From Delftia acidovorans NBRC 14950 (GTDB taxonomy: Bacteria; Pseudomonadota; Gammaproteobacteria; Burkholderiales; Burkholderiaceae_C): 32,000 nt of DNA. Location: NCBI RefSeq assembly GCF_001598795.1, contig NZ_BCZP01000010.1, positions 180,001 to 212,000 on the forward strand, written 5' to 3'. Under the pieces are notes generated by a model. The model was not told the DNA's origin. It worked only from the letters and a program-made list of their open reading frames with translations, and made no database searches. A program made the position numbers and the translations under genes. Positions 2,047 through 31,795 of the stretch are shown here, one piece after another (positions within the stretch are counted from its first letter, which is position 1; each line of letters starts with the position of its first letter).

Positions 2047-2106
2047 GTCTTGTCTCCAGGTGATCGTTCTGATGTCCGCTTATGTCTGCCTGTGTGGGCT
2101 TTCGAC

Positions 2107-2139
2107 GGCCTGCGGCACACTGCGCGCTGCACGCAGGCC
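2107..2139. promoter_or_regulatory. Inverted repeat GGCCTGCG-N17-CGCAGGCC in the divergent Bug/IclR intergenic region; candidate operator
   Basis: Perfect 8-bp arms read directly (2107-2114 and 2132-2139), lying between two divergently transcribed start codons (2046 and 2180). The binding protein is not established. Confidence 0.25.
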
Positions 2140-2179
2140 CTTTTCTGCCCTGCCTGCAATCACCGGGAAATTCTTTTCC

Positions 2180-2986
2180 ATGCCTTCGCGCAGCACCAAT
2201 CCAAACGTCCGGCCAGCGGACATTCCAGTCTCCGCCGACGATGCCGGCAGCCGCACGCTGCGCCGTGGCCTGCAGGTGCTGGACGCCGTGCTGGCTGCAG
2301 GCCGCGAAGGCCTGCGCGTCGCTGACCTGTGCCGCGCCACCGGGCTGGAGCGCGCCACGGTGTACCGCCTGCTGTCTACCCTGGTGGACAGCGGCTATGT
2401 GGCGCACAGGGGGCGCTTCGGCTATGCGGCCGGCCACCGGCTGGCGGCCACGGCCGCCAGCGCGGGCCAGCCCAACATGGCCGTGCGGCTGCAGCCCGTG
2501 CTGGAGCGCGTGAGCGCGGGCTGCGCGGACGCGGCGTTTGCCATCGTGCGCGAAGGCGCGGCATCGCACTGCATCGCCCGCCATGTGGGCACGCATCCGG
2601 TGCAGATCCTGGTGATCCAGGTGGGCACGCGCCAGCCGCTGGGCGTGGGAGCTGCGGGCCTGGCCCTGCTGGCCGCCCTGCCCGATGCCGAGGTGCAGGC
2701 CGCGATGGCGGCCAACGCGCCCGTGCTGGAGCAGTACGGCGGCATGACGCCCGAGCGCATGGCCCTGCTGGTGAAGGCCACGCGCCAGCGCGGCTGGTCC
2801 GTCATCGGCAACCACGCCACGCGCGGCGTGCTGGCCGTGGGCATGGCGGTGCGCAATGCCGAAGGCGAGCCCGTGGCCGCCGTCAGCGTGGCCTCCACGC
2901 TGGAGCGCATGCCCGGCGAGCGCCAGAAGCTGATTGCGCGCTCGATAGGCGAGGCCCTGGCGGCCCTGCTGCCGCGCGGCATCTGA
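2180..2986 (+). CDS. IclR-family transcriptional regulator
   Basis: Internal ATG at 2180 of ORF 1967-2986; the upstream part overlaps the Bug gene start. N-terminal wHTH pattern: LRRGLQVLDAVLAAGREGLRVADLCRATGLERATVYRLLSTLVDSGYV. IclR-type effector domain follows (GVGAAGLALLAALP...AVSVAS). Confidence 0.85.
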   Translation: MPSRSTNPNVRPADIPVSADDAGSRTLRRGLQVLDAVLAAGREGLRVADLCRATGLERATVYRLLSTLVDSGYVAHRGRFGYAAGHRLAATAASAGQPNMAVRLQPVLERVSAGCADAAFAIVREGAASHCIARHVGTHPVQILVIQVGTRQPLGVGAAGLALLAALPDAEVQAAMAANAPVLEQYGGMTPERMALLVKATRQRGWSVIGNHATRGVLAVGMAVRNAEGEPVAAVSVASTLERMPGERQKLIARSIGEALAALLPRGI

Positions 2987-3042
2987 GGCCAAGCCCCGGT
3001 CTGCACCGACAATCGGCGCTGCACACCACGAGCGCCGCCCCC

Positions 3043-4005
3043 ATGGAACTGAGACAACTCCGCTACTTCGTCCGCATCGTCGAACTGGGCTCCATGAGCC
3101 GCGCCGCCCTGGACCTGGACATGGTCCAGTCCGCGCTGAGCCAGCAGGTCAGCCGCCTGGAAAGCGAGCTGTCCACCCGGCTGCTGCAGCGCACGCCGCG
3201 CGGCGTGGTGCCCACCGAGGCGGGCGTGGCCTTCTTCCGCGAGGCCCAGCTCACGCTGCGCCATGCCGAGCAGGCCGTGCGCAGCGCGCAGCAGGCGCGG
3301 CTGTCGGGCTCGGTCAGCGTGGGCCTGGCGCCCACCACCTCGGCCATGCTGGGCCTGCCCATGATGCAGGCCATGCGCGCGCGCTACCCCGATGTGCGCC
3401 TGCACATGGTGGAAGGCATGTCCGGCCACCTGACCGACATGCTCAATGCGCGCGCGCTGGACATGGCCGTGCTGTTCGACGCCCGCCTGCACGGCGGTCA
3501 GGCCCGCGCAGGCGGGCGGCGCTGGCAGGTGCACCCGCTGATCGAGGAAGAGCTGTTCCTGATCCGCGCACGCGGCCACCACCCCGAGCCGCTGCCGCCG
3601 CAGATGGCGCTGGCCGACCTGGCCGGCGAATCGCTGATCCTGCCCACGGGTCTGCACGGCCTGCGCAGCACGCTGGACACGGCCTTCTCGCAGGCGCGCT
3701 TCACGCCGCATCTGGTGCTGGAGGTGGACTCGCTGTCCATGGTCATGGCGGCCGTGGATGCAGGCCTGGGCAGCACGGTGCAGCCCTGGGCCTCCATGGG
3801 CCGCTATGCCGATGCCGCGCAGCGCTTCGAGTGGTCGCGTATCACGGACAAAGATGCCCTGCGCACCAACTTGCTGTGCAGCCTGTCCGAGGATGAGCTG
3901 TCGCCCGCCGCCCTGGCCGCGCGCGTGGTGCTGATCGACTGCGTGCGCCAGCTGCTGCGCGGCGGTGCCTGGGCTGGCACGGCCCTCATCCATCACGAAG
4001 ACTGA
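3043..4005 (+). CDS. tcuR: LysR-family transcriptional regulator; TcuR-like by context (immediately upstream of tcuAB)
   Basis: ATG at 3043 within ORF 2329-4005. N-terminus [43 protein letters not shown] is a canonical LysR HTH. The symbol rests only on synteny with tcuA/tcuB, as in Salmonella tcuRABC. Confidence 0.7.
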
Positions 4006-5522: not shown

Positions 5523-6725
5523 ATGCAGACCCTGAACGCCCTGGCCCAAGAAGCCCAGGACCTGGCCGCCGGCCGGGTCATTCCCATCCTGCCGGTTTCC
5601 ACCGAAACGGCCGCCGAAGGCGAGGTGGCGCGCGCCCTGCAGATCTGCAACGCCTGCCGCTACTGCGAAGGCTTTTGCGCGGTCTTCCCGGCCATGACGC
5701 GGCGCCTGGAGTTCGGCAAGGCCGATGTGCACTACCTGGCCAACCTGTGCCACAACTGCGGCGCCTGCCTGCATGCCTGCCAGTACGCGCCGCCGCACGA
5801 GTTCGCCATCAACATCCCCAAGGCCATGGCCGAGGTGCGCGGCCAGACCTATGCCGACTACGCCTGGCCGCCCGCCCTGGGGCGCCTGTACCAGAGGAAC
5901 GGGCTCACGCTGTCGCTGGCCCTGGCCGCAGGCCTGTCCCTGTTCCTGGTGCTGGCCGTGGCCCTGCAGGGCGGCCTGGGCCGGCTGTGGGGCGCCGACC
6001 TGGGCGCCAACTTCTACAACCTGTTCCCGCACAACCTGCTGGTGGGCATCTTCGCGCCCGTGTTCCTGTTCGTGGTGCTGGCACTGGCCATGGGCGTGCG
6101 CCGCTTCTGGAAGGACGTCAAGCCCGCCACCGGCGGCGTGGACGTGGGCACGCCGGCGGCGGCCGAGGCCGCGCACGACGTGCTGCGCCTCAAATACCTG
6201 GACGGCGGCCACGGCGAGGGCTGCCACAACGACGACGATGCCTACACCCTGAGCCGCAGGCGCTTTCACCACCTGACCTTCTACGGATTCATGCTGTGCT
6301 TTGCGGCCACGGCGCTGGCCACGGTCTACCACTACGTGTTCGGCTGGGCCGCGCCCTACGAATTCCCCAGCCTGCCCAAGCTGCTGGGCGCCGTGGGCGG
6401 CACCAGCCTCATGCTGGGCACCGCAGGCCTGTGGCGCCTGAACCGCAGGCGCCACCCGCTGCATGGCGACGCGCGCCAGAAACCCATGGACCTGGGCTTC
6501 ATCGCCCTGCTGTTCCTGGTCGCCGCCAGCGGCATGGCGCTGTGGCTGGGCCGCGGCACGCCGGCCCTGGCCCTGCTGCTGTGCCTGCATCTGGGCGCGG
6601 TGATCGCCCTGTTCGCCACCCTGCCCTACGGCAAGTTCGCGCACGGCGTGTTCCGCACGGCATCCCTGCTGCGCCACAACACCGAAAAGCGCCAGCCCAG
6701 CCCCATCGGGCTGGGCGCCGACTAG
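5523..6725 (+). CDS. tcuB: Tricarballylate utilization 4Fe-4S membrane protein
   Basis: ATG at 5523 inside track ORF 4077-6725. Two Cys clusters, [11 protein letters not shown] and [11 protein letters not shown], followed by several hydrophobic helices ([36 protein letters not shown], etc.). This is the architecture expected for TcuB. Confidence 0.85.
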
Positions 6726-6767
6726 CCGCATCCGCCCCGATTCCCAGCCAATGACGGAGACAACCCC

Positions 6768-7748
6768 ATGATGAACAAGCGCAACTTCCTGCACGCCAGC
6801 GCCCTGGCCGCCTCCCTGCTCGCACTGGCCGCCAGTGCGCAGGCCCAGGACTTTCCTCCCAAGAAGCCCGTGTCCCTGGTCGTGGGCTTCGCCGCCGGCG
6901 GCGCCGCAGATGCGGCCGCGCGCCTGATCGCCAAGAAGCTGGGCGAGAACATCGGCCAGAGCGTGGTGGTGGAGAACAAGGGCGGCGCGGGCGGCAACAT
7001 CGCCCACCAGCAGGTGGCCAACGCGGCGGCCGACGGCTCGGTGCTGCTGTTCGGCTCGGTGGGGCCGCTGACCATTGCGCCGCACCTGATGAAGCTGCCC
7101 TACGACCCCTTCAAGGACCTGGCGCCCATCTCGGGCGGCGTGAACTTTCCCAACGTGCTGGTGGTGCACAAGGGCGCGGGCGTGAAGACCCTGGCCGAGT
7201 TCGTGGCCAAGGCCAAGAAGAACCCGGGCACGGTGGACTACGCCTCGACGGGCGCGGGCTCGGCCTCCCACCTGGCAGGCGAGCTGTTCAACCAGCGCGC
7301 GGGCATCGACATGGTGCACGTGCCCTACAAGGGCGGCGCGCCCGCGCTGCAGGACCTGCTGGGCGAGCGCGTGACCAGCTACTTCGCCGCGCCGCCCACG
7401 GCCCTGCCCCACATCGAGGCCGGCAAGCTGATCCCGCTGGCCACCACGGGCCTCACGCGCCCGGCGTACATGCCCGACATCCCTACGGTGGCCGAAGCCG
7501 GCTATCCCGGCTTCGAGGCGCTGAACTGGTATGCCTTCGTGGCACCGGGCAAGACGCCCAAGCCGATGCTGGACCGCTGGAACACCGAGATCGTCAAGGT
7601 ACTCAATGACCCTGGCGTCAAGGAGGCGCTGAACAAGCACGGCCTCACCCCCCAGCCCACCACGCGAGCCGAGTTCGCGGCCTTCATGAAGAAGGAATAC
7701 GAGCAGTGGGGCAGGCTGGTGAAGGAGCGAAAGCTCTCGGCGGAGTGA
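6768..7748 (+). CDS. Bug-family (TctC-like) periplasmic substrate-binding protein, co-oriented with tcuAB
   Basis: 326 aa with signal peptide (ASALAASLLALAASAQAQ). Bug blocks PVSLVVGFAAGGAADAAARL, VVVENKGGAGGN, ADGSVLL, VPYKGGAPALQDLLGERV. GGAG lies 8 nt upstream of the ATG. Confidence 0.9.
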   Translation: MMNKRNFLHASALAASLLALAASAQAQDFPPKKPVSLVVGFAAGGAADAAARLIAKKLGENIGQSVVVENKGGAGGNIAHQQVANAAADGSVLLFGSVGPLTIAPHLMKLPYDPFKDLAPISGGVNFPNVLVVHKGAGVKTLAEFVAKAKKNPGTVDYASTGAGSASHLAGELFNQRAGIDMVHVPYKGGAPALQDLLGERVTSYFAAPPTALPHIEAGKLIPLATTGLTRPAYMPDIPTVAEAGYPGFEALNWYAFVAPGKTPKPMLDRWNTEIVKVLNDPGVKEALNKHGLTPQPTTRAEFAAFMKKEYEQWGRLVKERKLSAE

Positions 7749-8414: not shown

Positions 8415-9401
8415 TCAATCCGCCACGATGCGCCGCTCCGTGGCGATCTTGCGGTACAGGGCGTTCTCGGCCGCGATCTCGCGCGCGAACTCCTCGGGGC
8501 GGTTGCCGATCACGCGCGAGCCCGTGTCCTCGATCTGGCGGCGCACCTCGGGGCTGGCCAGTGCGCGCTGGGCGGCCGCATGCAGGCGCGCCACGATCTC
8601 GGGCGACAGCCCCTTGGGGCCGTAGATGCCATAGAAGGCGCTGCGGTTGACAGGCTCCAGCCCCAGCTCCTTGAAGGTGGGCACCTGGGGCAGCTGGGCC
8701 AGGCGCTCGGGCGCGGCCACCGCCAGCGCGGTGAGCCGGCCCGCCTTGATGAAGGGCAGGGCCGAGGGCAGGTTGTCGAAGACGATGGGCACCTGGCCCG
8801 CCACCGCATCGTTGAGCGCGGGGCCCGATCCCCGGTAGGGCACATGCGTGAGCGACAGCCCCGAGCGGCTGGACATCAGCTCCATCAGCATGTGGCCTAT
8901 GGAGCCCGTGCCCGCCGTGCCGTAGGCATGCTTGCCGGGGTTCTTCTTCACCTCGTCCACGAAGGCCGTAAAGCTCTGCGCCTTGAAGCCCGGATGCACG
9001 GCCAGCACATTGGGCGTGGCCGCAATGTTGGTGATGGGCGTGAAATCGGTGAGCGGGTTGTAGGGCAGGCGCGGGTTGATGGCCGGATTGGTGGCCGTGG
9101 TGGACACGGTGGCCACGCCCAGCGTGTAGCCGTCGGGCTGGGCGCGCGCGGCCTCGTGCGCGCCGATGGCGCCTCCGCCGCCGCCCTTGTTGTCCACCAC
9201 CAGCGGCTGGCCCAGGGCCTCTGCCATGCGCGGCGCGATCGCGCGCGCCACGATGTCGGTGGTGCCGCCGGCCGCAAACGGCACGATCAGGCGCACCGGG
9301 CGCGTGGGATAGGCGCCGGCATCGGCCGCCATGGCGCCCGGTGCGGCACCAGCGGCCAGCAGCAGGGCGCACAGGCTGCGGCGTGAAGTGAAGTGGTTCA
9401 T
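8415..9401 (-). CDS. Bug-family (TctC-like) periplasmic substrate-binding protein
   Basis: 328 aa with signal peptide (LCALLLAAGAAPGAMAAD). Blocks RPVRLIVPFAAGGTTDIVARA, VVDNKGGGGG, PDGYTL, VPYRGSGPALNDAVAGQV. AGGAG upstream. Lies 51 nt downstream of the dehydrogenase gene on the same strand. Confidence 0.9.
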   Translation of the reverse strand: MNHFTSRRSLCALLLAAGAAPGAMAADAGAYPTRPVRLIVPFAAGGTTDIVARAIAPRMAEALGQPLVVDNKGGGGGAIGAHEAARAQPDGYTLGVATVSTTATNPAINPRLPYNPLTDFTPITNIAATPNVLAVHPGFKAQSFTAFVDEVKKNPGKHAYGTAGTGSIGHMLMELMSSRSGLSLTHVPYRGSGPALNDAVAGQVPIVFDNLPSALPFIKAGRLTALAVAAPERLAQLPQVPTFKELGLEPVNRSAFYGIYGPKGLSPEIVARLHAAAQRALASPEVRRQIEDTGSRVIGNRPEEFAREIAAENALYRKIATERRIVAD

Positions 9402-17961: not shown

Positions 17962-18827
17962 ACCCCCTCGGCATCCACGCCCTTGTCTGGGCCGGCGACC
18001 TGTCGCCGGCCTCCACCCGCCATGTGATCGAGCGGACGCGCCAGGCCGGTTACGACCTGGTCGAGCTGTCCCTGCACGGCCCCCGGCTCATGGACCTGGC
18101 GCTCACGCGTGATCTGCTGCAGGAGCATGGCCTGGGCGTAGGCTGCTCGCGCGGGCTGACCTTCGAGGCCGATGTCTCCAGCGAAGACCCCACCGTGGTC
18201 GCGCGCGGCCTGGCGCTGCTGCAAGAGGGCGTGGACATCACGGCGCGCCTGGGCGGGCGCTATTTCGGCGGCATCCTCTACGGCGCCATGGCGAAATACG
18301 GCCACCCGTGCACACCACAGGGCCGGCGCAACGCGATCGAGGCCGTGCGGCGCATTGCCGACTTCGCGGGCGAGCGCGGCGTCACGCTGGGCCTGGAGGT
18401 GGTCAACCGCTACGAAAGCAACCTGCTCAACACGGCCGAGCAGGCGCTGGAATTCATCGACGAAGTCGGCAAGCCCAATGTCTGCGTGCACCTGGACACC
18501 TACCACATGAACATCGAGGAAGCCGACCTGGCCGCGCCCGTGCTGGCCTGCGGCCAGCGGCTGGGCTACGTGCACATCGGCGAGAACCACCGCGGCTACC
18601 TGGGCGCGGGCCACATCGACTTCGCGCAGTTCTTCGGTGCGCTCGCGCAGATCGGCTACCAGGGCACCGTCACCTTCGAGAGTTTCTCGTCGGCCATCGT
18701 CAACGAGCAGTTGTCGAACGCGCTGGCCATCTGGCGCCCGATGTGGGAAGACGGCATGGACCTGGCCCTGCACGCACGCGGCTTCATGGCAGACGGGCTG
18801 GCCAGCGCGCAGCAGGCACGCGCATGA
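17958..18827 (+). CDS. Ketose 3-epimerase family protein (D-psicose/D-tagatose 3-epimerase-like TIM barrel)
   Basis: ATGA overlap with the permease. LGLEVVNRYESNLLNTAEQALEFIDEVGKPNVCVHLDTYHMNIEE...YVHIGENHR...TVTFESF aligns by eye with my recollection of Agrobacterium D-psicose 3-epimerase (IEVLNRFENHVLNTA...MLDTFHMNIEE...HFHTGECNR...IMEPF). All four metal ligands (Glu, Asp, His, Glu) are in place. Confidence 0.8.
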   Translation: MNPLGIHALVWAGDLSPASTRHVIERTRQAGYDLVELSLHGPRLMDLALTRDLLQEHGLGVGCSRGLTFEADVSSEDPTVVARGLALLQEGVDITARLGGRYFGGILYGAMAKYGHPCTPQGRRNAIEAVRRIADFAGERGVTLGLEVVNRYESNLLNTAEQALEFIDEVGKPNVCVHLDTYHMNIEEADLAAPVLACGQRLGYVHIGENHRGYLGAGHIDFAQFFGALAQIGYQGTVTFESFSSAIVNEQLSNALAIWRPMWEDGMDLALHARGFMADGLASAQQARA

Positions 18828-19465
18828 CGGCCATCCTGCCGCCCGAAGCCCTGGCGCGTGCGTTTGCGCTGGCGCGCCCCGGCCCCCGACGCCTGCTGGG
18901 CCTGACGGGCCCGCCCGGCGCAGGCAAGAGCACGGCCTGCGCCGCCCTGCTGCAGGCGCTGGGCCCGCTGACGGCGGCCGTGCCCATGGACGGCTTCCAC
19001 CTGGCGCAGTCCGCGCTGGAGCGCCTGGGCCGTGCACAGCGCAAGGGCGCGCCCGACACCTTCGACTCGGCCGGCTACGTGGCCCTGCTGCGCCGCCTGC
19101 GCGCGCCCGTGGCCGGTGAAACGGTCTACGCCCCCGAATTCCGGCGCGCCATCGAGGAGCCCATTGCAGGCGCCATCGCCATCGCGCCCGGCGTGCCCCT
19201 GGTCATCACCGAAGGCAATTACCTGCTGATGGATGAACAGGATGCGCCGGGCACGCACTGGCATGCCGTGCACACGCTGCTGGACGAGGTCTGGTACGTG
19301 GACATGGACGACCGCCTTCGCATCGAACGCCTGACCCGCCGCCACGAACTCCACGGCCGCAGCCCCCAGGCCGCACGCGACTGGGTGGCGCAGGTGGACG
19401 AGCCCAATGCGCGCCGCATTGCGGCAACGCGGGGGCGGGCGGATTGGGTGTTGCGCTGGGGGTGA
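18824..19465 (+). CDS. P-loop nucleoside/sugar kinase family protein (FrcK-like, uridine kinase/PRK fold)
   Basis: ATGA overlap with the epimerase. P-loop GLTGPPGAGKST, then MDGFH and ITEGNYLL blocks as in FrcK-type kinases linked to fructose ABC transporters in rhizobia. Substrate unknown. Confidence 0.7.
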   Translation: MTAILPPEALARAFALARPGPRRLLGLTGPPGAGKSTACAALLQALGPLTAAVPMDGFHLAQSALERLGRAQRKGAPDTFDSAGYVALLRRLRAPVAGETVYAPEFRRAIEEPIAGAIAIAPGVPLVITEGNYLLMDEQDAPGTHWHAVHTLLDEVWYVDMDDRLRIERLTRRHELHGRSPQAARDWVAQVDEPNARRIAATRGRADWVLRWG

Positions 19466-19487
19466 GGCTGCCGGACACAGCCCCCGC

Positions 19488-21089
19488 TCAGAACGCCACC
19501 ACGCCCCCATCCTTGCGCGGGTCCGATCCGCCGATGTAGTGGTCGCCGTCGCGCAGCACCAGTTGTGCGCCGCCGAAGGCGAAGACGCCATGGCCTTCCT
19601 CGATCGTGACTTCGTGGCCGCGTGCGCGCAGGGCGGCGACGACCTCGGCGTCGAAGGCCGGCTCCACGGCCACGCCCTTGCCGCCCGTCACGCGCCAGCG
19701 CGGTGCGTCGGCGGCGGCCTGGGGGTTCTGGCCGTAGCGCAGCACGCGCAGGGCCATCTGCAGGTGGCCCTGGCTCTGCATGGGGCCGCCCATCACGCCG
19801 AAGGCCATCTGGGGCGTGCCGTCGGCGTTCATCGCAAAGGCCGGGATGATGGTGTGCGAGGGGCGCTTGCGCGGCGCGACCTCGTTGGCATGGCCGGCTT
19901 GCGTGGTGAAGCCGTGGCCGCGGTTTTGCAGGCTGATGCCGGTGCCCGGCACGACCACGCCCGAGCCGAAGCCCATGTAGTTGGACTGGATGAACGAGAC
20001 CATCATGCCGCTGGCATCGGCCGACGCCAGGTAGACCGTGCCGCCGGGGCGCGGGGCGCCGTAGGTGGGCGCGCTGGCGCGCTCGCGGTCAATGAGCGCC
20101 GCGCGTTCGCGCAGGTAGCCGGCGTCCAGCAGATGGGCGGATTCGACGCGCATGTGGTCGCCGTCGGCGTTGTATTCGTGCAGGTCGGCCAGGGCCAGCT
20201 TCATGGCCTCGACCTGCAGGTGCACGGACTCCACGCCGTCCAGCGGCTCGGCGCCCACGCCCAGTGCGTCCAGCATGCCCAGCGCCATCAGCGCGGCAAT
20301 GCCCTGGCCGTTGGGCGGGATCTCGTGGATCACCGAGTCGCCAAAGGTCTGCGACACCGTGCCGACCCAGTCGGCCTGGTGGGCGGCCAGGTCGGCCTCG
20401 GTCATGGCGCCGCCGCAGGCCTTGGCGTGCTCGGCCATCGAGCGCGCCAGTGCGCCACGGTAGAAGGATTCGCCCTTGGTGGCGGCGATCTCCTCCAGCG
20501 TGCGCGCATGGGCTTCGCTGCGGAAGACCTCGCCCGCCTTCGGGGCCTTGCCATCGGGCAGGAAGCATTCGGCAAAACCGGGCTGGTCGCCGAGCTTGGC
20601 TCCGCCCAGCGCCCACAGCGTGGCGATGGTGGGCGAGACCGCAAAGCCGTCGCGCGCATAGCGGATGGCGGGCTGGGCCAGTTGCTCGAACGGCAGCTTG
20701 CCGAAGCGGCGCGACAGCTCCACCCAGGCCGAGACGGCGCCGGGCACGGTGACGGCGTTCCAGCCCTTCTCGGGGATGCCGCCCAGCGCGGCGAAGTACT
20801 CGGGCGTCCAGGCTTCGGGCGAGCGGCCCGAGGCATTGAGGCCGTGCAATTCCTTGCCATCCCACAGGATGCAGAAGGCATCGCTGCCCAGGCCGCAGCC
20901 CGTGGGCTCGACCACGGTCAGCGCCATGGCCGTGGCAATGGCCGCATCCACGGCATTGCCGCCGGCCAGCAGCATGGCCAGGCCGGCCTGCGCGGCCAGC
21001 GGCTGCGAGGTGGAGACCATGTTGCGGCCCAGCACCGAAGAGCGGTGCGAGGCGTAGGGAAGTGTCCAGTCCTTGATGGTGCTTGTCAT
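19488..21089 (-). CDS. Gamma-glutamyltransferase family protein, no signal peptide (cytoplasmic YwrD/acylase-like subgroup)
   Basis: 533 aa. Motifs GGNAVDAAIA, the autoprocessing-site-like PGGTVYLASAD, FGSGVVVPGTGI and GVMGGPMQSQG. No N-terminal signal sequence is visible. Confidence 0.85.
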   Translation of the reverse strand: MTSTIKDWTLPYASHRSSVLGRNMVSTSQPLAAQAGLAMLLAGGNAVDAAIATAMALTVVEPTGCGLGSDAFCILWDGKELHGLNASGRSPEAWTPEYFAALGGIPEKGWNAVTVPGAVSAWVELSRRFGKLPFEQLAQPAIRYARDGFAVSPTIATLWALGGAKLGDQPGFAECFLPDGKAPKAGEVFRSEAHARTLEEIAATKGESFYRGALARSMAEHAKACGGAMTEADLAAHQADWVGTVSQTFGDSVIHEIPPNGQGIAALMALGMLDALGVGAEPLDGVESVHLQVEAMKLALADLHEYNADGDHMRVESAHLLDAGYLRERAALIDRERASAPTYGAPRPGGTVYLASADASGMMVSFIQSNYMGFGSGVVVPGTGISLQNRGHGFTTQAGHANEVAPRKRPSHTIIPAFAMNADGTPQMAFGVMGGPMQSQGHLQMALRVLRYGQNPQAAADAPRWRVTGGKGVAVEPAFDAEVVAALRARGHEVTIEEGHGVFAFGGAQLVLRDGDHYIGGSDPRKDGGVVAF

Positions 21090-21107: not shown

Positions 21108-22115
21108 TTAGTCAAGAGTGATTTTGTTTTCTTTGATGACCTGCGCCCAGCGGACGCTGTCGGCCTGCACCATGGCAGCGAACTGCGCGGGCGTGCGGGG
21201 CGATGCGGCCTCCACGCCCTGCTTGGCCAGGCTGGCCACCACCTCGGGATTCTGGATGGCCTTGTTGAAGGCCTGATTGATCCGCGCCACCAGCTCGGGC
21301 TTCATGCCGGCCGGACCATAGACGCCGAACCAGGTGACCGAAGAATAGCCAGGCAGGCCGGACTCGGCCACCGTGGGCAGGTCGGGCGCCAGCGCGCTGC
21401 GCTTGTCGCCGGTCACGGCCAGTGCGCGCAGGCGGCCGCTGGCCACATGGGGCATGCCGGTGGGAATGGAGTCGAACAGCAGGTGCACCTGGCCAGCGGC
21501 CAGGTCGGTGATGGACTGGGCCGTGCCCTTGTAGGGCACATGGGTCAGCTGCAGGCCCGCGCGTGCCGCGAAGGCCGCCGCGTTCAGGTGGACGATGGTG
21601 CCGTTGCCGCTGCTGGCGTAGTTGAGGGCGCCCGGATGGGCCTTGGCATAGGTGATCAGCTCCTGCACATTGCGCACGGGCAGCGAGGGCGTGACCAGCA
21701 GGATGCTGGCCGCGCCGCCGATCTCGGCAATGGGCGTGAAATCCTTGTCGGCCTTGTAGGCCAGACGGGTCATCAGATGCGGCGAGATGGCATGCGTGCT
21801 GCTGGTGGTGAACAGCAGCGTGTAGCCGTCCGGCGAGGCCTTGGCGGCCTCGCCCGTGCCGATGGTGCCGCCCGCGCCGGGGCGGTTGTCGATGACCAGC
21901 TGCTGGCCCAGGTCCTGGGACATGCGCTGCGCCACCACGCGCGCCACGAGGTCGGTGGCGCCGCTGGCCGGAAAGGGCACGACCAGGCGCACCGGGTGCG
22001 AGGGCCAGGACGCCTGGCCCTGTGCCACGGCGGGCAGGGCGATGGCGCCAGCCAGGGCACAGGCTGCAGCCACGATGGCGCGGCGTGGAAGTAAAACGCT
22101 GGGCAATGCCTTCAT
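21108..22115 (-). CDS. Bug-family (TctC-like) periplasmic substrate-binding protein, first gene of an operon with the GGT-like gene
   Basis: ATG at 22115 with AGGAG upstream; the longer track ORF to 23267 is antisense to the LysR gene. Signal peptide AACALAGAIALPAVAQG. Blocks HPVRLVVPFPASGATDLVARV, VIDNRPGAGG, PDGYTLL, VPYKGTAQSITDLAAGQV. 18-nt gap to the GGT start. Confidence 0.9.
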   Translation of the reverse strand: MKALPSVLLPRRAIVAAACALAGAIALPAVAQGQASWPSHPVRLVVPFPASGATDLVARVVAQRMSQDLGQQLVIDNRPGAGGTIGTGEAAKASPDGYTLLFTTSSTHAISPHLMTRLAYKADKDFTPIAEIGGAASILLVTPSLPVRNVQELITYAKAHPGALNYASSGNGTIVHLNAAAFAARAGLQLTHVPYKGTAQSITDLAAGQVHLLFDSIPTGMPHVASGRLRALAVTGDKRSALAPDLPTVAESGLPGYSSVTWFGVYGPAGMKPELVARINQAFNKAIQNPEVVASLAKQGVEAASPRTPAQFAAMVQADSVRWAQVIKENKITLD

Positions 22116-23189: not shown

Positions 23190-23625
23190 CCGGAGGGCAT
23201 CGCGGGCAGCGCCCGCCAGACACCACGGAAACAGGGCAGGCCAGAAAAGAGACCACAGTCCGAACATGGGCGGAGGGGCAAAACTCGGAAAGCTCCGGTT
23301 TTTACTGCCCTGCAGACCCGTGATTCATCCATCGCCCTGATCGGTCCACCGAAGACGGGAGCGGATCGGGCATGAATCGGATAGGACTACTCTGATTCTG
23401 ACTCAGCCGATTCGGATTCTCCTGCGCGACCGGACAGCCAGCCGCCGGCGCCGTTCCTATCATTCGCATCTCTGTCGCCGGGCTTCCTTTACGGAACCCC
23501 TTGACTCCCGCTCCTGAATGAATACACGGACAACCCGGCCATCGCCGGACCTGCAAACAAGAGGCAAGGCATGTACACGAACCAGACCGGAGGGCGCAAG
23601 CGGCAATTGCAGCGGGAGGCACAGC

Positions 23626-24294
23626 ATGGATGAGCGAACCGAACTGACCTTCATGCTGCATGGCCTGTCGGACCGCGACGCCAAGCTGTTCCGCTCCTAT
23701 GTGCTGATGGTGAATCACCGCACACGGCACCGCTGGACGTGGCGCGAATCCCAGGCGGACATGACGGTGGCGCATGGCGAACTGGCCGAAGCGCCTGCCG
23801 CCCCGCCCGCGTTGACGCTGCGCGTGGGCGGGCAGCCCAAGGGGGCCTTTCCTGCGGGCGGTCATCTGAGCATGCCCCTGCGCGCCGATGCGCTGGAGGA
23901 ATGCCTCAACACCATGGGCGCACGCATCCTGTCGGTGCACGGCAAACCGGCCAGCGCCAAGGCACACGCCAGCGGCCTGCACACGCAGCATCAGCTGATG
24001 CTGCTGCAGCTGCGGCGCTGGCCGTCGCCGCAACTGCTGACGAGATCCCACCATATCCGCCTGGCCACCTTGCTGACAGGCCAGCCCACGACGATGCAGA
24101 CCCTGTGCCAGCGCTCGGGCCTGCCGCCCGAGATCTGTGCCGGTTTTCTGAACGAGCTGGACGCCGCCGGCCTGCTGCGCTGGGCCTCGGCCCGCCCGCC
24201 CGCCGCACCGCCCCCCGGCAACCCTGCGCCGGACAGGGGCGTGCTCGAACGCATACGCCTTCGCCTGGCCCGGTTTGCAGGAGCGCGCCCATGA
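23626..24294 (+). CDS. Hypothetical protein (222 aa) with a C-terminal winged-helix-like segment; first gene of the GTPase/Roadblock cluster (CvnC/DUF742-like only by loose resemblance)
   Basis: ATG at 23626 with GGGAGG 6 nt upstream. Its stop overlaps the GTPase start (ATGA). C-terminal IRLATLLTGQPTTMQTLCQRSGLPPEICAGFLNELDAAGLL reads like a wHTH. I recognise no other motif. Confidence 0.6.
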   Translation: MDERTELTFMLHGLSDRDAKLFRSYVLMVNHRTRHRWTWRESQADMTVAHGELAEAPAAPPALTLRVGGQPKGAFPAGGHLSMPLRADALEECLNTMGARILSVHGKPASAKAHASGLHTQHQLMLLQLRRWPSPQLLTRSHHIRLATLLTGQPTTMQTLCQRSGLPPEICAGFLNELDAAGLLRWASARPPAAPPPGNPAPDRGVLERIRLRLARFAGARP

Positions 24295-24839
24295 GCGAAC
24301 TCAAGATCCTGATTTCCGGCCCTCCAGGCGCAGGCAAGACCACGGCCATCCGCTGCGTCAGCGAGATCGCCCCCGTGAGCACCGACGTGCGCAACACCGA
24401 TGACACCCTGGACAAGGCGCTGACGACGGCCGGCATGGACTATGGCGAGCTGACCCTGGACAACGGCGAGAAGCTGTACCTCTACGGCACGCCCGGGCAG
24501 GAGCGCTTTGACTTCATGTGGCGCATCCTCTCGCGCGGCGCGCTGGGCGTGATCTTGCTGATCGACAACAGCCGCTCCGATCCGCTGGCCGACCTGGATA
24601 TCTATGTCCAGGGCCTGTCCGATGCCTTGCGCAGCACGGCATGCGTGGTGGCGGTATGCCGCATGCAGGAGTACACAGCGCCTGATCTGGACAGCTTTGC
24701 CGTGCACCTGCAATCGCGCGGCCTGCTGTGCCCCGTGGTGCCGGCCGATGTGCGCAACCCCCAGCAGGTGGTGGCCCTGATCGAGCTGTTGCTGCTGCAG
24801 ATTGAAGCCCTTGCCCAGGAGAAGTCCCATGAAGAATGA
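24291..24839 (+). CDS. Small P-loop GTPase of the prokaryotic Ras-like CvnD/MglA group (COG2229-type ATP/GTP-binding protein)
   Basis: 182 aa. G1 ISGPPGAGKTT. G3/switch II LYLYGTPGQERFDFMW followed by GALGVILLIDNSR, closely resembling the conservon CvnD consensus as I recall it. No canonical NKxD. Confidence 0.8.
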   Translation: MSELKILISGPPGAGKTTAIRCVSEIAPVSTDVRNTDDTLDKALTTAGMDYGELTLDNGEKLYLYGTPGQERFDFMWRILSRGALGVILLIDNSRSDPLADLDIYVQGLSDALRSTACVVAVCRMQEYTAPDLDSFAVHLQSRGLLCPVVPADVRNPQQVVALIELLLLQIEALAQEKSHEE

Positions 24840-25212
24840 CGCTGCCTTGAAGGCTGCAGCCCAGGCGGCGGTGCAGTCGCTGATGAGCAGGTTGCACGGC
24901 GTGCGTGGCTGCGTGGTCAGCACCGAGGACGGCTTCGAGGTGGCCGCCCGTGCGCAAGGCCAGGGCAGCACGGCGCGGCTGTCTGCAATGGCCAGCTCGA
25001 TGGCGGCGCTGGGCATGATCGCCGGCGAGGAGAACCAGCTCGGGCATTGCGCCAACGTGGTGGTCGAGGCGGCCGAGGGCTTCATCGTCATGCTGCAGGC
25101 ACAGCGCCCGGGCCTGACGCTGGTCATCAGCGTGGTGGCCTCGCGCGAGGCCGTTCTGGGCCAGGTTCTCTATGTCTCGCGCGAGGCCGTGCGGACGCTG
25201 GAACAAGCGTGA
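24829..25212 (+). CDS. Roadblock/LC7 (MglB/CvnB-like) domain protein, copy 1
   Basis: ATG at 24829 with AGGAG at 24818-24822; overlaps the GTPase 3' end by 11 nt. Pattern LMSRLHGVRGCVVSTEDGFEVAA...RLSAMASSMAALGMIAGEE..LG...VVVEAAEGFIVM...LTLVISVVAS...LGQVLY is typical of Roadblock/LC7. Confidence 0.75.
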   Translation: MKNDAALKAAAQAAVQSLMSRLHGVRGCVVSTEDGFEVAARAQGQGSTARLSAMASSMAALGMIAGEENQLGHCANVVVEAAEGFIVMLQAQRPGLTLVISVVASREAVLGQVLYVSREAVRTLEQA

Positions 25213-25307
25213 TGGCAAAGGCAGGCAAGGGCTGCTCATATGCATCCGGCAAGAAGGCACCGCGAAGGTGCAGAACATTTTCGCAACACAAGGGAGTTAG
25301 GAAAACA

Positions 25308-25667
25308 ATGGCCAATATCAAGCAAACCATGGATGAACTGATGCGCTGCGACGGCGCCATGTGCGCTGCACTGGTGGACTACAACAGCGGCATGATCCTG
25401 GGGCAGGACGGATCGGGCGTGGACCTGGAGCTGGCTGCCGCCGGCAACACCGAACTGGTGCGCGCCAAACTCAAAACCATGCGCTCGCTGGGCCTGGAAG
25501 ACACCATCGAGGACATCCTCATCACGCTGAGCAAGCAGTACCACATCCTGCGCCCCTCCACCCACCACGAGGGACTGTTCCTCTACCTGGTGCTCGACAA
25601 GGCCAAGGCCAATCTCGCGCTGGCGCGGCGCAAGGTGCAGGACGTGGAAGGCGTGCTGGTGGTCTGA
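25308..25667 (+). CDS. Roadblock/LC7-like domain protein, copy 2 (divergent paralogue)
   Basis: ATG at 25308, preceded by GGGAG/AGGA. Pattern DGAMCAALVDYNSGMILGQDG...DLELAAAGNTELVRAKLKTMRSLGLEDTIEDILITL...LFLYLVLDKAKANLALARRKV. An in-frame ATG at 25212 (TGATG overlap with copy 1) is an alternative start, but the extra 32 codons are rich in rare codons. Confidence 0.7.
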   Translation: MANIKQTMDELMRCDGAMCAALVDYNSGMILGQDGSGVDLELAAAGNTELVRAKLKTMRSLGLEDTIEDILITLSKQYHILRPSTHHEGLFLYLVLDKAKANLALARRKVQDVEGVLVV

Positions 25668-25726: not shown

Positions 25727-26440
25727 TCAGAACCGCTCGGCGCACAGCGCCTGCCACTGCAGGATCTCGATCTCGCCGCGCTGCACCCGGATGAGGCCGC
25801 GCGCCTGCAGGCCCTGCAGCAGCACGTTGGTGGTCTGGCGCGAGATCGACAGCATGCGCGCCAGCTGCTCCTGCGTGATATCGAGGCGCGGCCGGGCCGG
25901 CACATCGTCCAGCCGCTCGCCGTAGCCGCGCGCCATGGCCACCAGGCGGCGCGCCAGGCGCTGGGGTGCGGGCAGCAGGGCCAGATCCTCCAGCGCCGCA
26001 AAGGCCGCGCGCATGCGCCCCGACATCAGCACGCCCAGGTCATGCCAGTGCGCGGGGTGCTGCTGCAGCCAGTCCAGCAGCGGCTGGCGCGGCACCTGCA
26101 ACACCACGCTGGGCTCCATGGCGTGGGCATCGTGGGTGCGCGGCGAACCGTCGAACAGCGCGATCTCGCCAAACCAGGTGGCCGGGCCCATGCGCGTGAG
26201 CAGGGCCTCGCGCGCATGCTCGCTCTGGCCACCCACACCGGAGAAACCGATGCTGCCACGGACCACGGCGAACAGCCCACCCTCCAGCGCATCGCCGCGC
26301 AGGAACAGGGCCTCGCCCGTCTCCAGGCTGCGCGGCTGGGCCAGCGCCAGCAGCAAATCGGCAAACTGCGGCGCCAGTGCGCTGAACCAGCGGCCGGCGC
26401 GCAGCGTGGGCAGGTAGGAAAAGGCGAGGGAAGCTTGCAT
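25727..26440 (-). CDS. Crp/Fnr-family transcriptional regulator (cNMP-binding domain + C-terminal HTH)
   Basis: ATG at 26440 (M32 of track ORF 25727-26533). cNMP-like beta-roll: LFLRGDALEGGLFAVVRGSI...GPATWFGEIALFDGSPRTHDAHA. HTH: ITQEQLARMLSISRQTTNVLLQGLQARGLI. Confidence 0.85.
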   Translation of the reverse strand: MQASLAFSYLPTLRAGRWFSALAPQFADLLLALAQPRSLETGEALFLRGDALEGGLFAVVRGSIGFSGVGGQSEHAREALLTRMGPATWFGEIALFDGSPRTHDAHAMEPSVVLQVPRQPLLDWLQQHPAHWHDLGVLMSGRMRAAFAALEDLALLPAPQRLARRLVAMARGYGERLDDVPARPRLDITQEQLARMLSISRQTTNVLLQGLQARGLIRVQRGEIEILQWQALCAERF

Positions 26441-29443: not shown

Positions 29444-30937
29444 TCAGCGCGTCCGGCGGCGCCGGCGCATTGCCGCCATGGCCAGCAGCACCGAGGCCGA
29501 TGTGGCCGCCAGACCCGCAAGGTTCCACACGGGAATGGCTGCAGCAGACGTCGCCGCCATCACCATGATGCCGCCCGGATCGACCACCACGCCATTGGCC
29601 TGCAGGTCATCGTCGCCCAGGCCACCGTCCTGGACTTCCAGGGTGTAGGTATTGGCCGAGATCACCTTGAAGCCGTCGTTGAAGGCATACCAGTGCGGTG
29701 CCGGGTTGGCCGCCGTGGGACCGTATTTCCAGTACTGGGCACCCGCGGGCAGGGCCTGCGGCATGGTGACGCTGAGCTTCAGCGTCGCGCCTGAGTTGCA
29801 GCCCGACGAGCGCAGGTTCAGCACGCCCAGCGGATAGGCCGCTGCACCCTGGGGCGGCGCCGTGGGCAGGCTTTGCGCACGCACCAGCGATGCCGATTGC
29901 AGGCTGCAGCCGCTGGCCGGATTGCTGACGGTCAGCGTCGCGCTGCCGCCTTGCAGGGTCGAGATGGTGGTGGCGCCAGCGACAGGGGCGTTGACCGTCA
30001 GGGGCTGCGAGGCTGGCCCCGCGCCGCTGCTGGACTGTGCCGCCACGCTGCAGTTGTAGGCCACGCCGGGCGTCAGGCCGTTGACCGCCACCGTCGGAGT
30101 GCTGGACGTGCCCGTCAGCACCGCGCCGCCGCCTTGCGGGACGCATTGCGCCACATAGCCCGTGACCGTCTGGCCGGGGATGGAGGCGACCGGATCGAAG
30201 GTCAGCTGCATGGCCGTGCCCTGCGCGAAAAAGCCCGTATCGGCAGGTGGCTGAAGTGCGCCCGGAACGCTGCCGGACCAGACACTCATCGCATCCACGC
30301 CGAAGAACAGGCTTTGCCGGTTGTCCACCTCGGCAATGCGCAGCCGCACGGTCTGGCCCGCGTAGGCCGACAGGTCGAACTGCAGCGACTGGTAGCCGCT
30401 GCCGCTGGCCGAAGGGCCGGGCACCGTGGCCGGCGGCCACTGGAAGACATTGGCCAGCACACCGGCGCCCAGGCTGTCGGGCGCGGCTGCAGGGTTCATG
30501 ACGTCGATGCGCACCTGCTGGTTGGGCGCAGCCACCGTGTAGTCAAGCGTGGCCGGCGCCGCAGCGACCTTGGCCGCATTCTGGACATGGACGCGGGCGC
30601 TCAGCGTGGCCGGGCTGCCCGCCGGAATGGCGACGTCCTGGTAGAGCACATGGCTGCCGGGGCCGGGCTGGTCGCTCATGAGGGCAAACGCCCCGTCGGG
30701 AGGTGCAGGCACGGCCACGGGCGTGATGGCGCCCCTGGTGCCTTGCTGGGCGGCGAAGCCGCCCTTGGAGCCGGCCTGGGACACGGATTGCCAGCCCGTG
30801 AAAACCAGGGAACCCGGACCGGAGTTCTGCTCGAAACTGCCGTTGGCCAGCAGTTCGGCGGCTTGCGCCGGGCCCAGGGCCGCAAACACCGCAAGCCCCA
30901 GACAGGACTTGCGGGCAACGCCTTTTACGCTGTGCAT
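29444..30937 (-). CDS. Secreted surface protein with Fn3-like middle domain, choice-of-anchor-like domain and IPTL-CTERM-like C-terminal sorting tail
   Basis: 497 aa with signal peptide LGLAVFAALGPAQAAE. Fn3-like VTGYVAQC...VNGLTPGVAYNCSVAAQSSSGAGPAS. DGGLGDDDLQANGVVVDPGG block. Tail AAIPVWNLAGLAATSASVLLAMAAMRRRRRTR (motif, then TM helix, then Arg cluster). Confidence 0.75.
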   Translation of the reverse strand: MHSVKGVARKSCLGLAVFAALGPAQAAELLANGSFEQNSGPGSLVFTGWQSVSQAGSKGGFAAQQGTRGAITPVAVPAPPDGAFALMSDQPGPGSHVLYQDVAIPAGSPATLSARVHVQNAAKVAAAPATLDYTVAAPNQQVRIDVMNPAAAPDSLGAGVLANVFQWPPATVPGPSASGSGYQSLQFDLSAYAGQTVRLRIAEVDNRQSLFFGVDAMSVWSGSVPGALQPPADTGFFAQGTAMQLTFDPVASIPGQTVTGYVAQCVPQGGGAVLTGTSSTPTVAVNGLTPGVAYNCSVAAQSSSGAGPASQPLTVNAPVAGATTISTLQGGSATLTVSNPASGCSLQSASLVRAQSLPTAPPQGAAAYPLGVLNLRSSGCNSGATLKLSVTMPQALPAGAQYWKYGPTAANPAPHWYAFNDGFKVISANTYTLEVQDGGLGDDDLQANGVVVDPGGIMVMAATSAAAIPVWNLAGLAATSASVLLAMAAMRRRRRTR

Positions 30938-30955
30938 GATGCTGCCTTGCGCCGA

Positions 30956-31699
30956 TCAGCGTTCGTAGACGGTGTCGGTGGGCGCGCTGTCCTGGGTGTT
31001 GCCCATGACCCGGTTGTTGTTGAACGAGGTGATCTTCCCGCCAGCCACAGCGTTGAACGCCTTGTCATTGCCGAACACCGTGGTGTTGGACAGGTAGACC
31101 TGGGCGGCCGTGCTCTGGACACTGATGGCGGCGCGTTCCGGCTCGCCCTGTGCTGGCACTACATTGCCCAGCAATTGCGAGCGTTGCACCAGAACAGACA
31201 CAGAAGTAGCGCCCGTATCGACCTTCACCGCCGCCTGCGTGAAGCCCTGGATCCTGACGTTGTCCAGCACCACTTTGCCTGCCTGGACGATTCTGACGCC
31301 GAACGTTCCTGTGCCGTTGCCGACGATGTCCAGATCCCGCAGCACCACGGTGTCAGAAACACCCGCGTTGATGGTGATGCCCGCGGTACCGGAGACCAGC
31401 ACGCCGGCAAGCACGCCTGTGCCGTCCACCTGCATGGACTTGGTGATAGTGAGTCCACCGACGCCCGCAGGATCCAGCACGTTGATCTCGCCATTGGCGG
31501 CCGTCTTGGAGATGGCCCCCGCAAACGTCTTGCAGGGAGCCGTGCGGCTGCAGGGGTTGACGTCATCGCCCACGCCCGAGACCCAGGTGCGCGTGGCCTG
31601 TGCCCAGGCGCCGGAGGATGCCAGCGTGGCCGATGCGCAAACGATGAGGGCAGCCCAGCCGCGGCTGGACAGGAAAGGGGCACGGGGAATGAACGACAT
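30956..31699 (-). CDS. Secreted right-handed parallel beta-helix repeat protein
   Basis: ATG at 31699 (M26 of track ORF 30956-31774), with GGAG 8 nt upstream. Signal peptide ALIVCASATLASSGAWAQ. N-terminal cap TWVSGVGDDVNPCSRTAPCKTFAGAIS. Repetitive G/V/N-rich approximately 22-aa turns (ITINAGVSDTVVLRDLDIVGNG..., VRIVQAGKVVLDNVRIQGF...). 18 nt upstream of the IPTL-tail gene. Confidence 0.7.
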   Translation of the reverse strand: MSFIPRAPFLSSRGWAALIVCASATLASSGAWAQATRTWVSGVGDDVNPCSRTAPCKTFAGAISKTAANGEINVLDPAGVGGLTITKSMQVDGTGVLAGVLVSGTAGITINAGVSDTVVLRDLDIVGNGTGTFGVRIVQAGKVVLDNVRIQGFTQAAVKVDTGATSVSVLVQRSQLLGNVVPAQGEPERAAISVQSTAAQVYLSNTTVFGNDKAFNAVAGGKITSFNNNRVMGNTQDSAPTDTVYER

Positions 31700-31766
31700 C
31701 GGAATCTCCGTAGGCGATGGGCTGCGGCCATGTTGCCGGATCGGCATTTCATGCGCATTGTCAATA

Positions 31767-31795
31767 ATTATCATGCGAACGAAAAACTTTCAGAA
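31767..31795 (-). promoter_or_regulatory. Candidate promoter of the beta-helix/IPTL pair (-35 TTCTGA, 17 nt, -10 GATAAT) in an AT-rich spacer
   Basis: On the minus strand, GATAAT (31772-31767) matches 5/6 of the consensus and TTCTGA (31795-31790) matches 3/6. The stretch 31740-31815 is the most AT-rich part of the window. A TTGACA at 31764-31759 has no usable -10 partner. Confidence 0.3.

Follow-up and report, generated by a model that had tools for sequence, protein, structure and literature searches.

The window analysed in this study, a 32,000-nucleotide (nt) stretch of Delftia acidovorans NBRC 14950 (contig NZ_BCZP01000010.1, positions 180,001 to 212,000), contains four same-strand genes, here called g1 to g4, that form one operon-like cassette. 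The cassette is probably a Group 3 MglA-family switch, with g3 and g4 as a heterodimeric GTPase-activating protein (GAP) for the small GTPase g2 and with g1 as an exchange factor or effector of CvnC type. In the beta/gamma-proteobacteria it is the sister of the conservon of actinobacteria (CvnB/C/D), without the CvnA kinase. An initial annotation, made from the letters of the window alone, had ranked the cassette as its top candidate for an undescribed system. This did not hold, since the same architecture was catalogued in 2015 as Group 3 MglA systems, with 182-amino-acid (aa) Delftia entries, in the material on this group in Wuichet and Søgaard-Andersen (Genome Biol Evol; PMC4316618); the kind of system is therefore already known. 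What is added here is modest: a hidden second Roadblock gene, g4, which is the most constrained component, a CvnC-like C-terminal half of g1, and the finding that no kinase is a conserved neighbour.

Layout of the cassette

The features of the locus are as follows (window coordinates; ORF, open reading frame).

23379-23467, + strand: conserved blocks 5' of g1, candidate promoter or operator
23626-24294, + strand: g1, ORF of 222 aa, the 'DUF' partner protein of Group 3 MglA systems
24291-24839, + strand: g2, ORF of 182 aa, predicted small Ras-superfamily GTPase, MglA family Group 3, CvnD-like
24829-25212, + strand: g3, ORF of 127 aa, canonical Roadblock/LC7 (MglB/CvnB-type) protein by profile match
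25213-25307, + strand: g3-g4 spacer, 95 nt, with a local hairpin and the g4 ribosome-binding site
25308-25667, + strand: g4, ORF of 119 aa, predicted divergent Roadblock/MglB-fold protein, missed by Pfam

Reading the sequence recovered the four genes at the coordinates that the initial annotation had listed, together with its two overlaps, a 4-nt ATGA start/stop overlap between g1 and g2 and an 11-nt overlap between g2 and g3. That annotation had also considered all four genes to be translationally coupled. The overlaps agree with this for g1-g2-g3, whereas g4 lies beyond the 95-nt spacer, behind a GGAG-type ribosome-binding site of its own, and is therefore not translationally coupled to g3; the candidates for coupling are limited to g1-g2-g3. 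The g1 orthologs start with MDER..LTF in an alignment of N-termini, so the g1 start at 23626 is favoured over an upstream ATG at 23518.

The small GTPase g2

By its motifs, g2 is a Ras-superfamily P-loop NTPase of CvnD type. It carries G1 as GPPGAGKT, G2 with T45/T46, G3 as GTPGQ (G66-T-P-G-Q70), G4 as VCRMQ, and G5 as DVR; the P-loop, the T45-T46 pair, and GTPGQ are invariant across g2 homologs (n = 24). The P-loop and the switch-II block LYLYGTPGQERFDFMW, both named in the initial annotation, were located in g2. The same annotation had called the protein a CvnD/MglA-like GTPase, and this agrees with a comparison to CvnD from a plasmid-borne conservon of Streptomyces (44% identical, E 1e-29) and with the Pfam results, in which PF03029 matched at 1.5e-13 and Ras, Roc, and MMR_HSR1 matched weakly. 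Among solved structures, Rab/Sec4 GTPases were closest by sequence. Identity to Myxococcus xanthus MglA, using an MglA sequence supplied by hand, was 28% over 101 aa, and g2 does not have the Group 1 hallmarks, with L-T-T instead of the arginine finger, GTPGQ instead of TVPGQ, and VCRMQ instead of NKxD.

A further invariant feature, K42-x-x-T45-T46, lies in switch I of g2 (window ~24414-24428), and the conservon CvnD sequences have K-x-T-T-T. The g2 pattern recalls the RxxT arginine-finger motif of G-alpha proteins.

The G4 motif of g2 is degenerate (VCRMQ in Delftia, VGRxE as the family consensus), and it raises the question of whether g2 has guanine specificity at all or is instead an ATPase or general NTPase and not a true G-protein switch. 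The replacement of [NT]KxD in G4 is in keeping with such an NTPase, as is the fact that the only Pfam match of g2 above threshold, PF03029, is described as a 'conserved hypothetical ATP binding protein'. We regard this as very unlikely, because G1, G2, and G3 are intact, including the catalytic glutamine, and because Group 2 also combines this deviant G4 with a DAR-type G5, and its member CvnD9, whose G4 is similarly deviant, is reported as a GTPase in the part of PMC4316618 dealing with these motifs.

The Roadblock proteins g3 and g4

By profile and sequence matches, g3 is a Roadblock protein: it matched Robl_LC7 in Pfam at 8e-7 and, among PDB sequences, a Roadblock protein (9jue_D, 9e-7) and CvnB5 (3leq, 1e-3), and it is 31% identical to conservon CvnB (E 3e-5). 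Its D34-G35 pair is 100% conserved in family members (n = 79). No match above threshold was obtained for g4 in Pfam, NCBIfam, or PDB sequences, and a direct BLASTP comparison of g3 with g4 was not significant (E 0.13). The AlphaFold2 model of g4, built with 30 homologs, reached a pLDDT of 91.6 and has the order alpha-beta-beta-alpha-beta-beta-beta-alpha. The top Foldseek matches of this model were MglB of MglA-MglB complexes (6izw_C, 3t12, 1j3w), the Streptomyces Roadblock protein 3kye, and LAMTOR2 (MP1-p14/Ragulator entries), with TM ~0.8, rmsd 1.6-2.6 Å, and E ~1e-6. In related loci, the iterated g3 and g4 profiles cross-match the same ORFs. Because of the predicted fold and these cross-matches, g4 is considered a divergent Roadblock/MglB paralogue, and its Roadblock/MglB fold is a confident prediction. 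The initial annotation had seen the Roadblock pattern in both proteins and had suggested the Robl_LC7 profile as a check. The profile recognised g3 and gave no match to g4, whose Roadblock identity comes from the predicted fold and the profile cross-matches and not from the pattern. The counterpart of the DG pair in g4 is S27-G28 together with an invariant D24.

Identity of g4 is 97-99% within Delftia and 75-80% to Variovorax, and the median identity to non-Delftia orthologs is 71% for g4, 54% for g2, 40% for g3, and 32% for g1. The most conserved component of the cassette is g4, above the GTPase that it presumably regulates. Such high conservation suggests that g4 may have a constrained partner outside the cassette.

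The number of Roadblock genes varies among loci. In some cassettes (loci L014, L019, L020, L025, L031, and L032), three Roadblock genes follow in a row, namely g3, a g4-like gene (121-135 aa), and g4 (119 aa). Locus L032, from Competibacter, has two cassettes in tandem.

The winged-helix partner protein g1

The g1 protein carries a winged helix resembling that of CvnC/DUF742. It consists of an N-terminal alpha/beta domain (residues ~1-105), a variable linker, an RWP motif with the winged helix (~125-188), a Pro/Ala linker, and a basic helix (~204-218; GLLxRIRxRLG, mean net charge +3.2). The family evolves fast, with 10 matches in a word-index search and 1275 clusters at 50% identity in a profile search. 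Nothing above threshold was found for g1 in Pfam or NCBIfam, where its winged-helix matches were sub-threshold. The AlphaFold2 model has a mean pLDDT of 56, with ~80 in the winged-helix region and ~50 in the N-terminal domain, where beta-alpha-beta-beta elements are seen. Foldseek returned weak winged-helix matches (ArsR/MarR/RPC39), many of the 140 family members have sub-threshold winged-helix matches in Pfam, and a weak SmtB match gives further winged-helix support. The upstream gene had been described as wHTH-like from the start, and the winged helix is backed by the model region, Foldseek, the sub-threshold Pfam matches, and the SmtB match.

Residues W37, W132, and P133 are invariant in the family, W132-P133 across 140 members. 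In the same 140 members, near-invariance extends to C171, F174, and L178 and, within the C-terminal helix, to the I-R-x-R-L motif (residues 210-214), and the cysteine C171 sits in the third helix of the winged helix. The conserved residues 132-133, 171, 174, 178, and 210-214 correspond to window ~24019-24267.

For the comparison with CvnC, we used eight Streptomyces, Nocardia, Nonomuraea, and Rhodococcus loci from a plasmid collection, and a DUF742 profile was made from six verified DUF742 proteins. The conservon order in the five annotated Streptomyces loci is kinase, Roadblock, DUF742, GTPase, so the DUF742 gene adjoins the GTPase gene on its 5' side, overlapping or abutting it, which is the same position that g1 has relative to g2. 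When the g1 family was aligned with DUF742 by hhalign, the probability was 79-89% (E 2e-6 to 1.5e-5), and the alignment spans the winged helix and, in one run, the C-terminal helix too. As controls, the N-terminal half of g1 gave a probability of 0.4% against DUF742, and the C-terminal half gave 0.06% against a receiver profile. Weak DUF742 matches were present in 8 of the 140 family members (best E 4e-3). The initial annotation had suggested the Pfam model of DUF742 (PF05331) as a check; g1 gave no match in that Pfam search and lies below the threshold of the model. Genuine DUF742 proteins have weak generic winged-helix matches like those of g1 (MarR_2, DprA_WH, IclR, TrmB, HTH_20). Homology of the C-terminal half of g1 to CvnC, as judged from these profile alignments, is probable but unproven.

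A different role for g1 was hypothesised by Wuichet and Søgaard-Andersen, for whom the Group 3 partner may be a transcription factor (PMC4316618, sections on Group 3). Applied to this cassette, g1 would be a DNA-binding transcription factor composed of a pseudo-receiver and a winged helix and gated by the GTPase and Roadblock proteins, and the module would be a gene-expression switch. This is possible, and the evidence can be followed domain by domain. In the same sections, Phyre2 assigns, with confidence of >=90%, a receiver-like fold to the N-terminus and a winged helix-turn-helix to the C-terminus, and g1 itself weakly matches the DNA-binding winged helices of ArsR/SmtB, MarR, IclR, and TrmB. 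In addition, conservon mutants of Streptomyces show altered transcription (PMC13343842). The helix at the recognition position of g1 (164-181), however, carries the conserved C171, F174, and L178, and most of the residues exposed on it are neutral or acidic (mean charge ~-1, n = 140). A hydrophobic and slightly acidic helix is atypical for DNA reading and points to protein binding instead. The best specific profile match of g1 is also DUF742/CvnC, whose homolog in the Mfp system is reported to be a GEF (guanine nucleotide exchange factor), not a DNA binder. On the N-terminal side, Response_reg had no match in the 140 family members, and the domain has no invariant Asp or other acidic residue. 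An hhalign comparison of g1 with a receiver profile made of only three sequences, taken from ORFs of the fetched loci, was uninformative. On balance the transcription-factor role is doubtful, and we favour g1 as a CvnC-like exchange factor or effector of g2.

Conservation of the cassette and the kinase question

A scan of species-representative genomes gave at least 596 related stretches, from which 80 loci were kept; the counts below refer to the 86 GTPase genes in these loci, of which 81 could be assessed on each side. A g1 homolog lies directly upstream of the GTPase gene in 71/81, with a g1-g2 gap mostly of -4 to +26 nt, and a Roadblock gene follows downstream in 73/81. Two or more Roadblock genes were present in 38/81, and a g4-type gene (119 aa) in 31/81. 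The co-occurrence check proposed with the initial annotation thus showed that the cassette genes are kept as a unit. The same four-gene cassette, syntenic with the window, was found in Delftia tsuruhatensis and D. acidovorans, and copies flanked by unrelated genes are present in Variovorax and a JGI assembly. Since the gene order is shared by dozens of species with differing flanks, the unit is far beyond a chance occurrence.

The 80 loci belong to Comamonadaceae, Oxalobacteraceae, Zoogloeaceae, Neisseriaceae, Pseudomonas, Rhodanobacteraceae, Methylococcaceae, Thiotrichaceae, and others. Exceptions outside the beta/gamma-proteobacteria are rare, with one Nitrospira and one Akkermansiaceae locus. 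Some genomes have two paralogous cassettes, such as loci L009 and L018 of V. boronicumulans.

In a distant subclade (Neisseriaceae, Methylococcaceae, and Halothiobacillus; L047, L052, L056, L057, L065, and L083, ~6540-7200), a conserved protein of 212-219 aa follows the GTPase. Its C-terminal half is Roadblock-like by eye and is barely detected by the g3 and g4 profiles (E 0.0035 to ~2), and a 120-aa g3-type Roadblock protein comes after it.

All genuine conservons that were fetched for comparison have a kinase. The initial annotation had stated that a CvnA-like kinase is absent, and no HATPase_c or HisKA match was found in the window ORFs tested. It had further reasoned that an obligate CvnA-type neighbour elsewhere would make the cassette an ordinary conservon. 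Such a neighbour was not seen: in the 34 g4-type loci, the 122 flanking ORFs match 136 Pfam families, the commonest of which are PAS (6), Response_reg (5), and HATPase_c (4). With flanks this diverse, there is no conserved neighbour and no conserved kinase in these loci.

Comparison with known systems

In the passages of PMC4316618 that define the MglA family, the GTPases fall into five groups, of which Group 2 comprises conservon CvnD and Group 3 belongs 'almost exclusively' to the beta/gamma-proteobacteria. GTPGQ and the TT pair are common to Groups 2-5, Groups 2 and 3 share the deviant G4 and a DAR G5, and the MglBs coupled to Groups 2-5 have a common DG pair. The Group 3 partner protein has conserved N- and C-terminal regions joined by a variable linker. 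The cassette shares these features as far as those passages describe them: g2 has GTPGQ, TT in G2, the deviant G4, and a DAR-like G5; g1 has the upstream adjacency (71/81), conserved ends, a variable linker, and a winged-helix-like C-terminal region; and two Roadblock (MglB-type) genes lie downstream, with DG in g3 and with g4 assigned by its predicted Roadblock fold. The beta/gamma-proteobacterial distribution is shared as well. On these descriptions, g1-g4 fit the Group 3 features, the receiver-like N-terminal fold aside.

Table S2 of the same study lists Daci_0776 of Delftia acidovorans SPH-1 ('<MglA<DUF', 182 aa) and DelCs14_5759 of Delftia Cs1-4 ('DUF>MglA>', 182 aa). Judged by genus, length, and synteny in locus L006, both are almost certainly g2 orthologs. 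No MglB is given at these Delftia entries in Table S2, and one MglB is given for Variovorax Varpa_3016 (172 aa), so the two Roadblock genes were under-detected in that table. The cassette differs from the tabulated systems in that both downstream genes are Roadblock genes here, with g4 visible only by fold prediction, and in that the link of the g1 C-terminus to DUF742/CvnC is absent from the passages on Group 3 in PMC4316618.

Another close system is the conservon, or actinobacterial G protein system (CvnA-D, and the Mfp system of mycobacteria). Its similarity to the cassette extends to the GTPase, which is 44% identical to CvnD, to g3, which is 31% identical to CvnB and matches CvnB5 in the PDB, and to a winged-helix protein encoded immediately 5' of the GTPase gene and overlapping it in both systems, the C-terminal half of g1 being alignable with DUF742. 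In contrast, a CvnA sensor kinase is found neither in the cassette nor in the window ORFs tested nor among the conserved neighbours. The gene order is C-like, D, B, B' here and A-B-C-D in the conservon, as the initial annotation had correctly described. There are two divergent Roadblock genes instead of one, g1 has an extra N-terminal domain of ~105 aa and falls below the DUF742 threshold in Pfam, and the hosts are Pseudomonadota instead of Actinomycetota.

Group 1 MglA/MglB of Myxococcus and Thermus, which act with RomR/RomX and MglC/RomY, likewise combine a small GTPase with Roadblock-fold regulators. MglB as seen in MglA-MglB complexes can be superposed with the g4 model (TM ~0.8, rmsd 1.6-2.0 Å), and the receiver-type accessory protein, RomR in Myxococcus, may have a counterpart in the N-terminus of g1. 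Against the Group 1 description in PMC4316618, g2 has TT in place of the intrinsic arginine finger, GTPGQ in place of TVPGQ, and no NKxD. Here the partner genes lie next to each other and partly overlap; in Myxococcus, according to that description, they are dispersed. The sequence similarity of g2 to MglA, with the hand-supplied MglA sequence, is low.

These comparisons bear on a possible output of the module, namely the control of cell polarity or of surface behaviour that depends on type IV pili, as in the case of Myxococcus MglA/MglB. Such an output is compatible with the Group 3 switch proposed above and would specify what the switch acts on. In Snodgrassella, which has a Group 3 mgl locus, a G78R substitution in an orphan mglB changed both how colonies spread on 0.5% agar and how the host is colonised (PMC11112851), and PilY1-domain proteins flank the cassette in 2 of the 34 loci. 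The flanks are otherwise overwhelmingly unrelated to motility, and g2 differs from MglA in the three motifs just named and in overall sequence (28% over 101 aa). The Snodgrassella evidence, moreover, is a single missense allele from the distant subclade, in which the second gene is different (212-219 aa). A pilus or polarity output is therefore unlikely for the Delftia cassette. The searchable literature yielded two papers on Group 3, PMC4316618 and PMC11112851; it contains no biochemical characterisation of a Group 3 system, and the Snodgrassella mglB allele is its only experimental hint, in line with the initial annotation, which had called the function of such modules uncharacterised.

The eukaryotic Ragulator/LAMTOR-Rag and EGO complexes also use Roadblock heterodimers as platforms for small GTPases, and the g4 model matches LAMTOR2 (MP1-p14/Ragulator). 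The likeness is at the level of the fold only, with 16-18% identity, and the cassette has neither a Rag-type C-terminal Roadblock domain on the GTPase nor a membrane-anchor subunit.

Proposed mechanism

In the Group 3 switch favoured here, g2 would cycle between GTP- and GDP-bound states as a nucleotide switch. The g3 and g4 proteins would pair as a Roadblock heterodimer, which would bind one g2 at its switch regions and stimulate hydrolysis. This is modelled on the asymmetric MglB dimer (MglB2:MglA1) and on the CvnB homolog MfpD, which is reported as a GAP for MfpB (as summarised in PMC13343842). Of the two proteins, g3 keeps the DG pair that MglBs linked to Groups 2-5 typically have, and g4 is the more constrained partner. 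The ATGA overlap would allow g1 to be made in fixed proportion to g2. Contact with g2 would be made by the winged helix of CvnC type and by the basic helix at the C-terminus of g1, and g1 would serve either in nucleotide exchange, like the CvnC homolog MfpC, a likely GEF (as summarised in PMC13343842), or as the direct effector. For the N-terminal domain of g1, with no invariant Asp and no receiver match, the most likely task would be signal input or localisation, replacing the kinase. The switch could act on transcription, as Wuichet and Søgaard-Andersen proposed, on surface motility, as the Snodgrassella hint would have it, or on another process.

Several points weigh against this proposal. 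The heterodimer, GAP, and GEF roles are all inferred, and the guanine specificity of g2, whose G4 is without NKxD, is a prediction. The link between g1 and DUF742 is moderate, and since both have common weak winged-helix matches, the likeness may be at the fold level only. The N-terminal domain of g1 is poorly modelled (pLDDT ~50), so the published receiver-like fold was neither reproduced nor refuted. The scope of the kinase result is the 32-kb window, and a kinase or other partner encoded elsewhere in the genome is possible.

Genomic context and non-coding elements

The cassette lies between a LysR gene (HTH_1 and LysR_substrate), which ends at 23189, 436 nt before g1, and a convergent Crp/Fnr gene (cNMP_binding and HTH_Crp_2), which ends at 25727. 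Both neighbours had been named in the initial annotation and were identified by domain matches. Upstream of g1, the blocks GGATAGGACT..TCTGATTC..GATTC..GATTC at 23379-23422 and the block TTCCTATCATTCGC at 23454-23467 are kept in three Delftia species, while the DNA around them has diverged, as seen in a comparison of the upstream regions. These blocks may be an operator or promoter. A promoter scan found no match to the sigma-70 consensus upstream of g1, and the sole find of the promoter and terminator scan was a terminator-like site after the LysR gene.

The g3-g4 spacer contains the hairpin GCACC-GCGAA-GGTGC at 25257-25271. A spacer between g4 and the preceding Roadblock gene is present in every locus, with a length of 55-257 nt, mostly 60-130, and most of these spacers hold a local GC-rich stem-loop, followed by a T-run in L014, L029, L033, and L042. 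A conserved RNA structure in this spacer was considered and rejected: local hairpins are common, yet whole-spacer folding z-scores were not significant in the spacers of L001-L042 (median -0.5). Rfam, tRNA, and tandem-repeat scans gave nothing relevant at the locus.

The initial annotation had seen more A/T-containing codons in the cassette than in its flanks, a weak impression on the codon figures given below, and had taken this as a hint of lateral acquisition. A recently transferred mobile or defence-type island would fit the lower total GC over g2-g4 (0.62-0.66 versus ~0.70 in the flanks) and the fact that the context of the cassette differs between genera. The GC3 of g1-g4 is 0.83-0.87, within the range of ORFs picked across the window (0.79-0.97, mostly ~0.90). 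The dip lies at second codon positions (GC2) and hence mirrors the amino-acid make-up of the proteins. Synteny of the locus is kept in two other Delftia species, the similarity of the cassette declines with taxonomic distance, and no tRNA or repeats lie nearby. PADLOC gave nothing below E 1e-3, with one weak match to mad8 in the P-loop region of g2 (E 0.0014), and a phage search gave no matches. A plasmid search returned no close copy; all matches were <60% identical, and most of them were Streptomyces conservons. With GC3 in the window range, the Delftia synteny, and the PADLOC and phage results, a recent lateral, defence, or phage origin was rejected, and an island of this kind is scarcely credible.

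Some further observations concern the rest of the window. The region 29444-31774 (-) has lower GC (~0.63 at 30.8-31.8 kb) and is compositionally more deviant than the GTPase cassette; it encodes an fn3-containing ORF of 497 aa and an ORF with a weak Beta_helix match (E 3.8e-5, below the Pfam cut-off). In the Delftia tsuruhatensis locus L001, HATPase_c_2 (RsbW-like) and DUF4325 genes lie at 1955-3122 between PRK-like and gamma-glutamyltranspeptidase genes. There is no room for this pair at ~18300-19490 of the window, which places an indel ~5 kb upstream of the cassette; the pair is not a CvnA-type kinase. Four TctC/Bug-family periplasmic receptor genes occur in the 32 kb (1036-2046, 6768-7748, 8415-9401, and 21108-22100), interspersed with IclR, LysR, and LacI regulators. 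An abundance of TctC/Bug receptors is typical of Comamonadaceae. The high-GC3 ORFs at 5675-6754 (+) and 450-896 (+) had no Pfam match at the thresholds used.

Implications

Ras-like G-protein modules are rare and poorly understood in bacteria; studies have been limited to Myxococcus MglA/MglB and, less extensively, to the conservons of actinobacteria. Group 3 is widespread in the beta/gamma-Proteobacteria, including Neisseria, Pseudomonas, Variovorax, and Delftia. Because the CvnB/C/D core appears to be shared, the input and output of the kinase-less version would also inform the conservons. We further put forward, as a speculative and rather improbable idea, that the cassette is a self-contained, kinase-independent G-protein unit, in which g1 would combine a non-phosphorylatable pseudo-receiver input with a CvnC-type exchange factor and g4 would link the switch to conserved core machinery of the cell that lies outside the cassette. 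If this is true, Group 3 would give Proteobacteria a new means of wiring a Ras-like switch, one that does without two-component phosphorylation.

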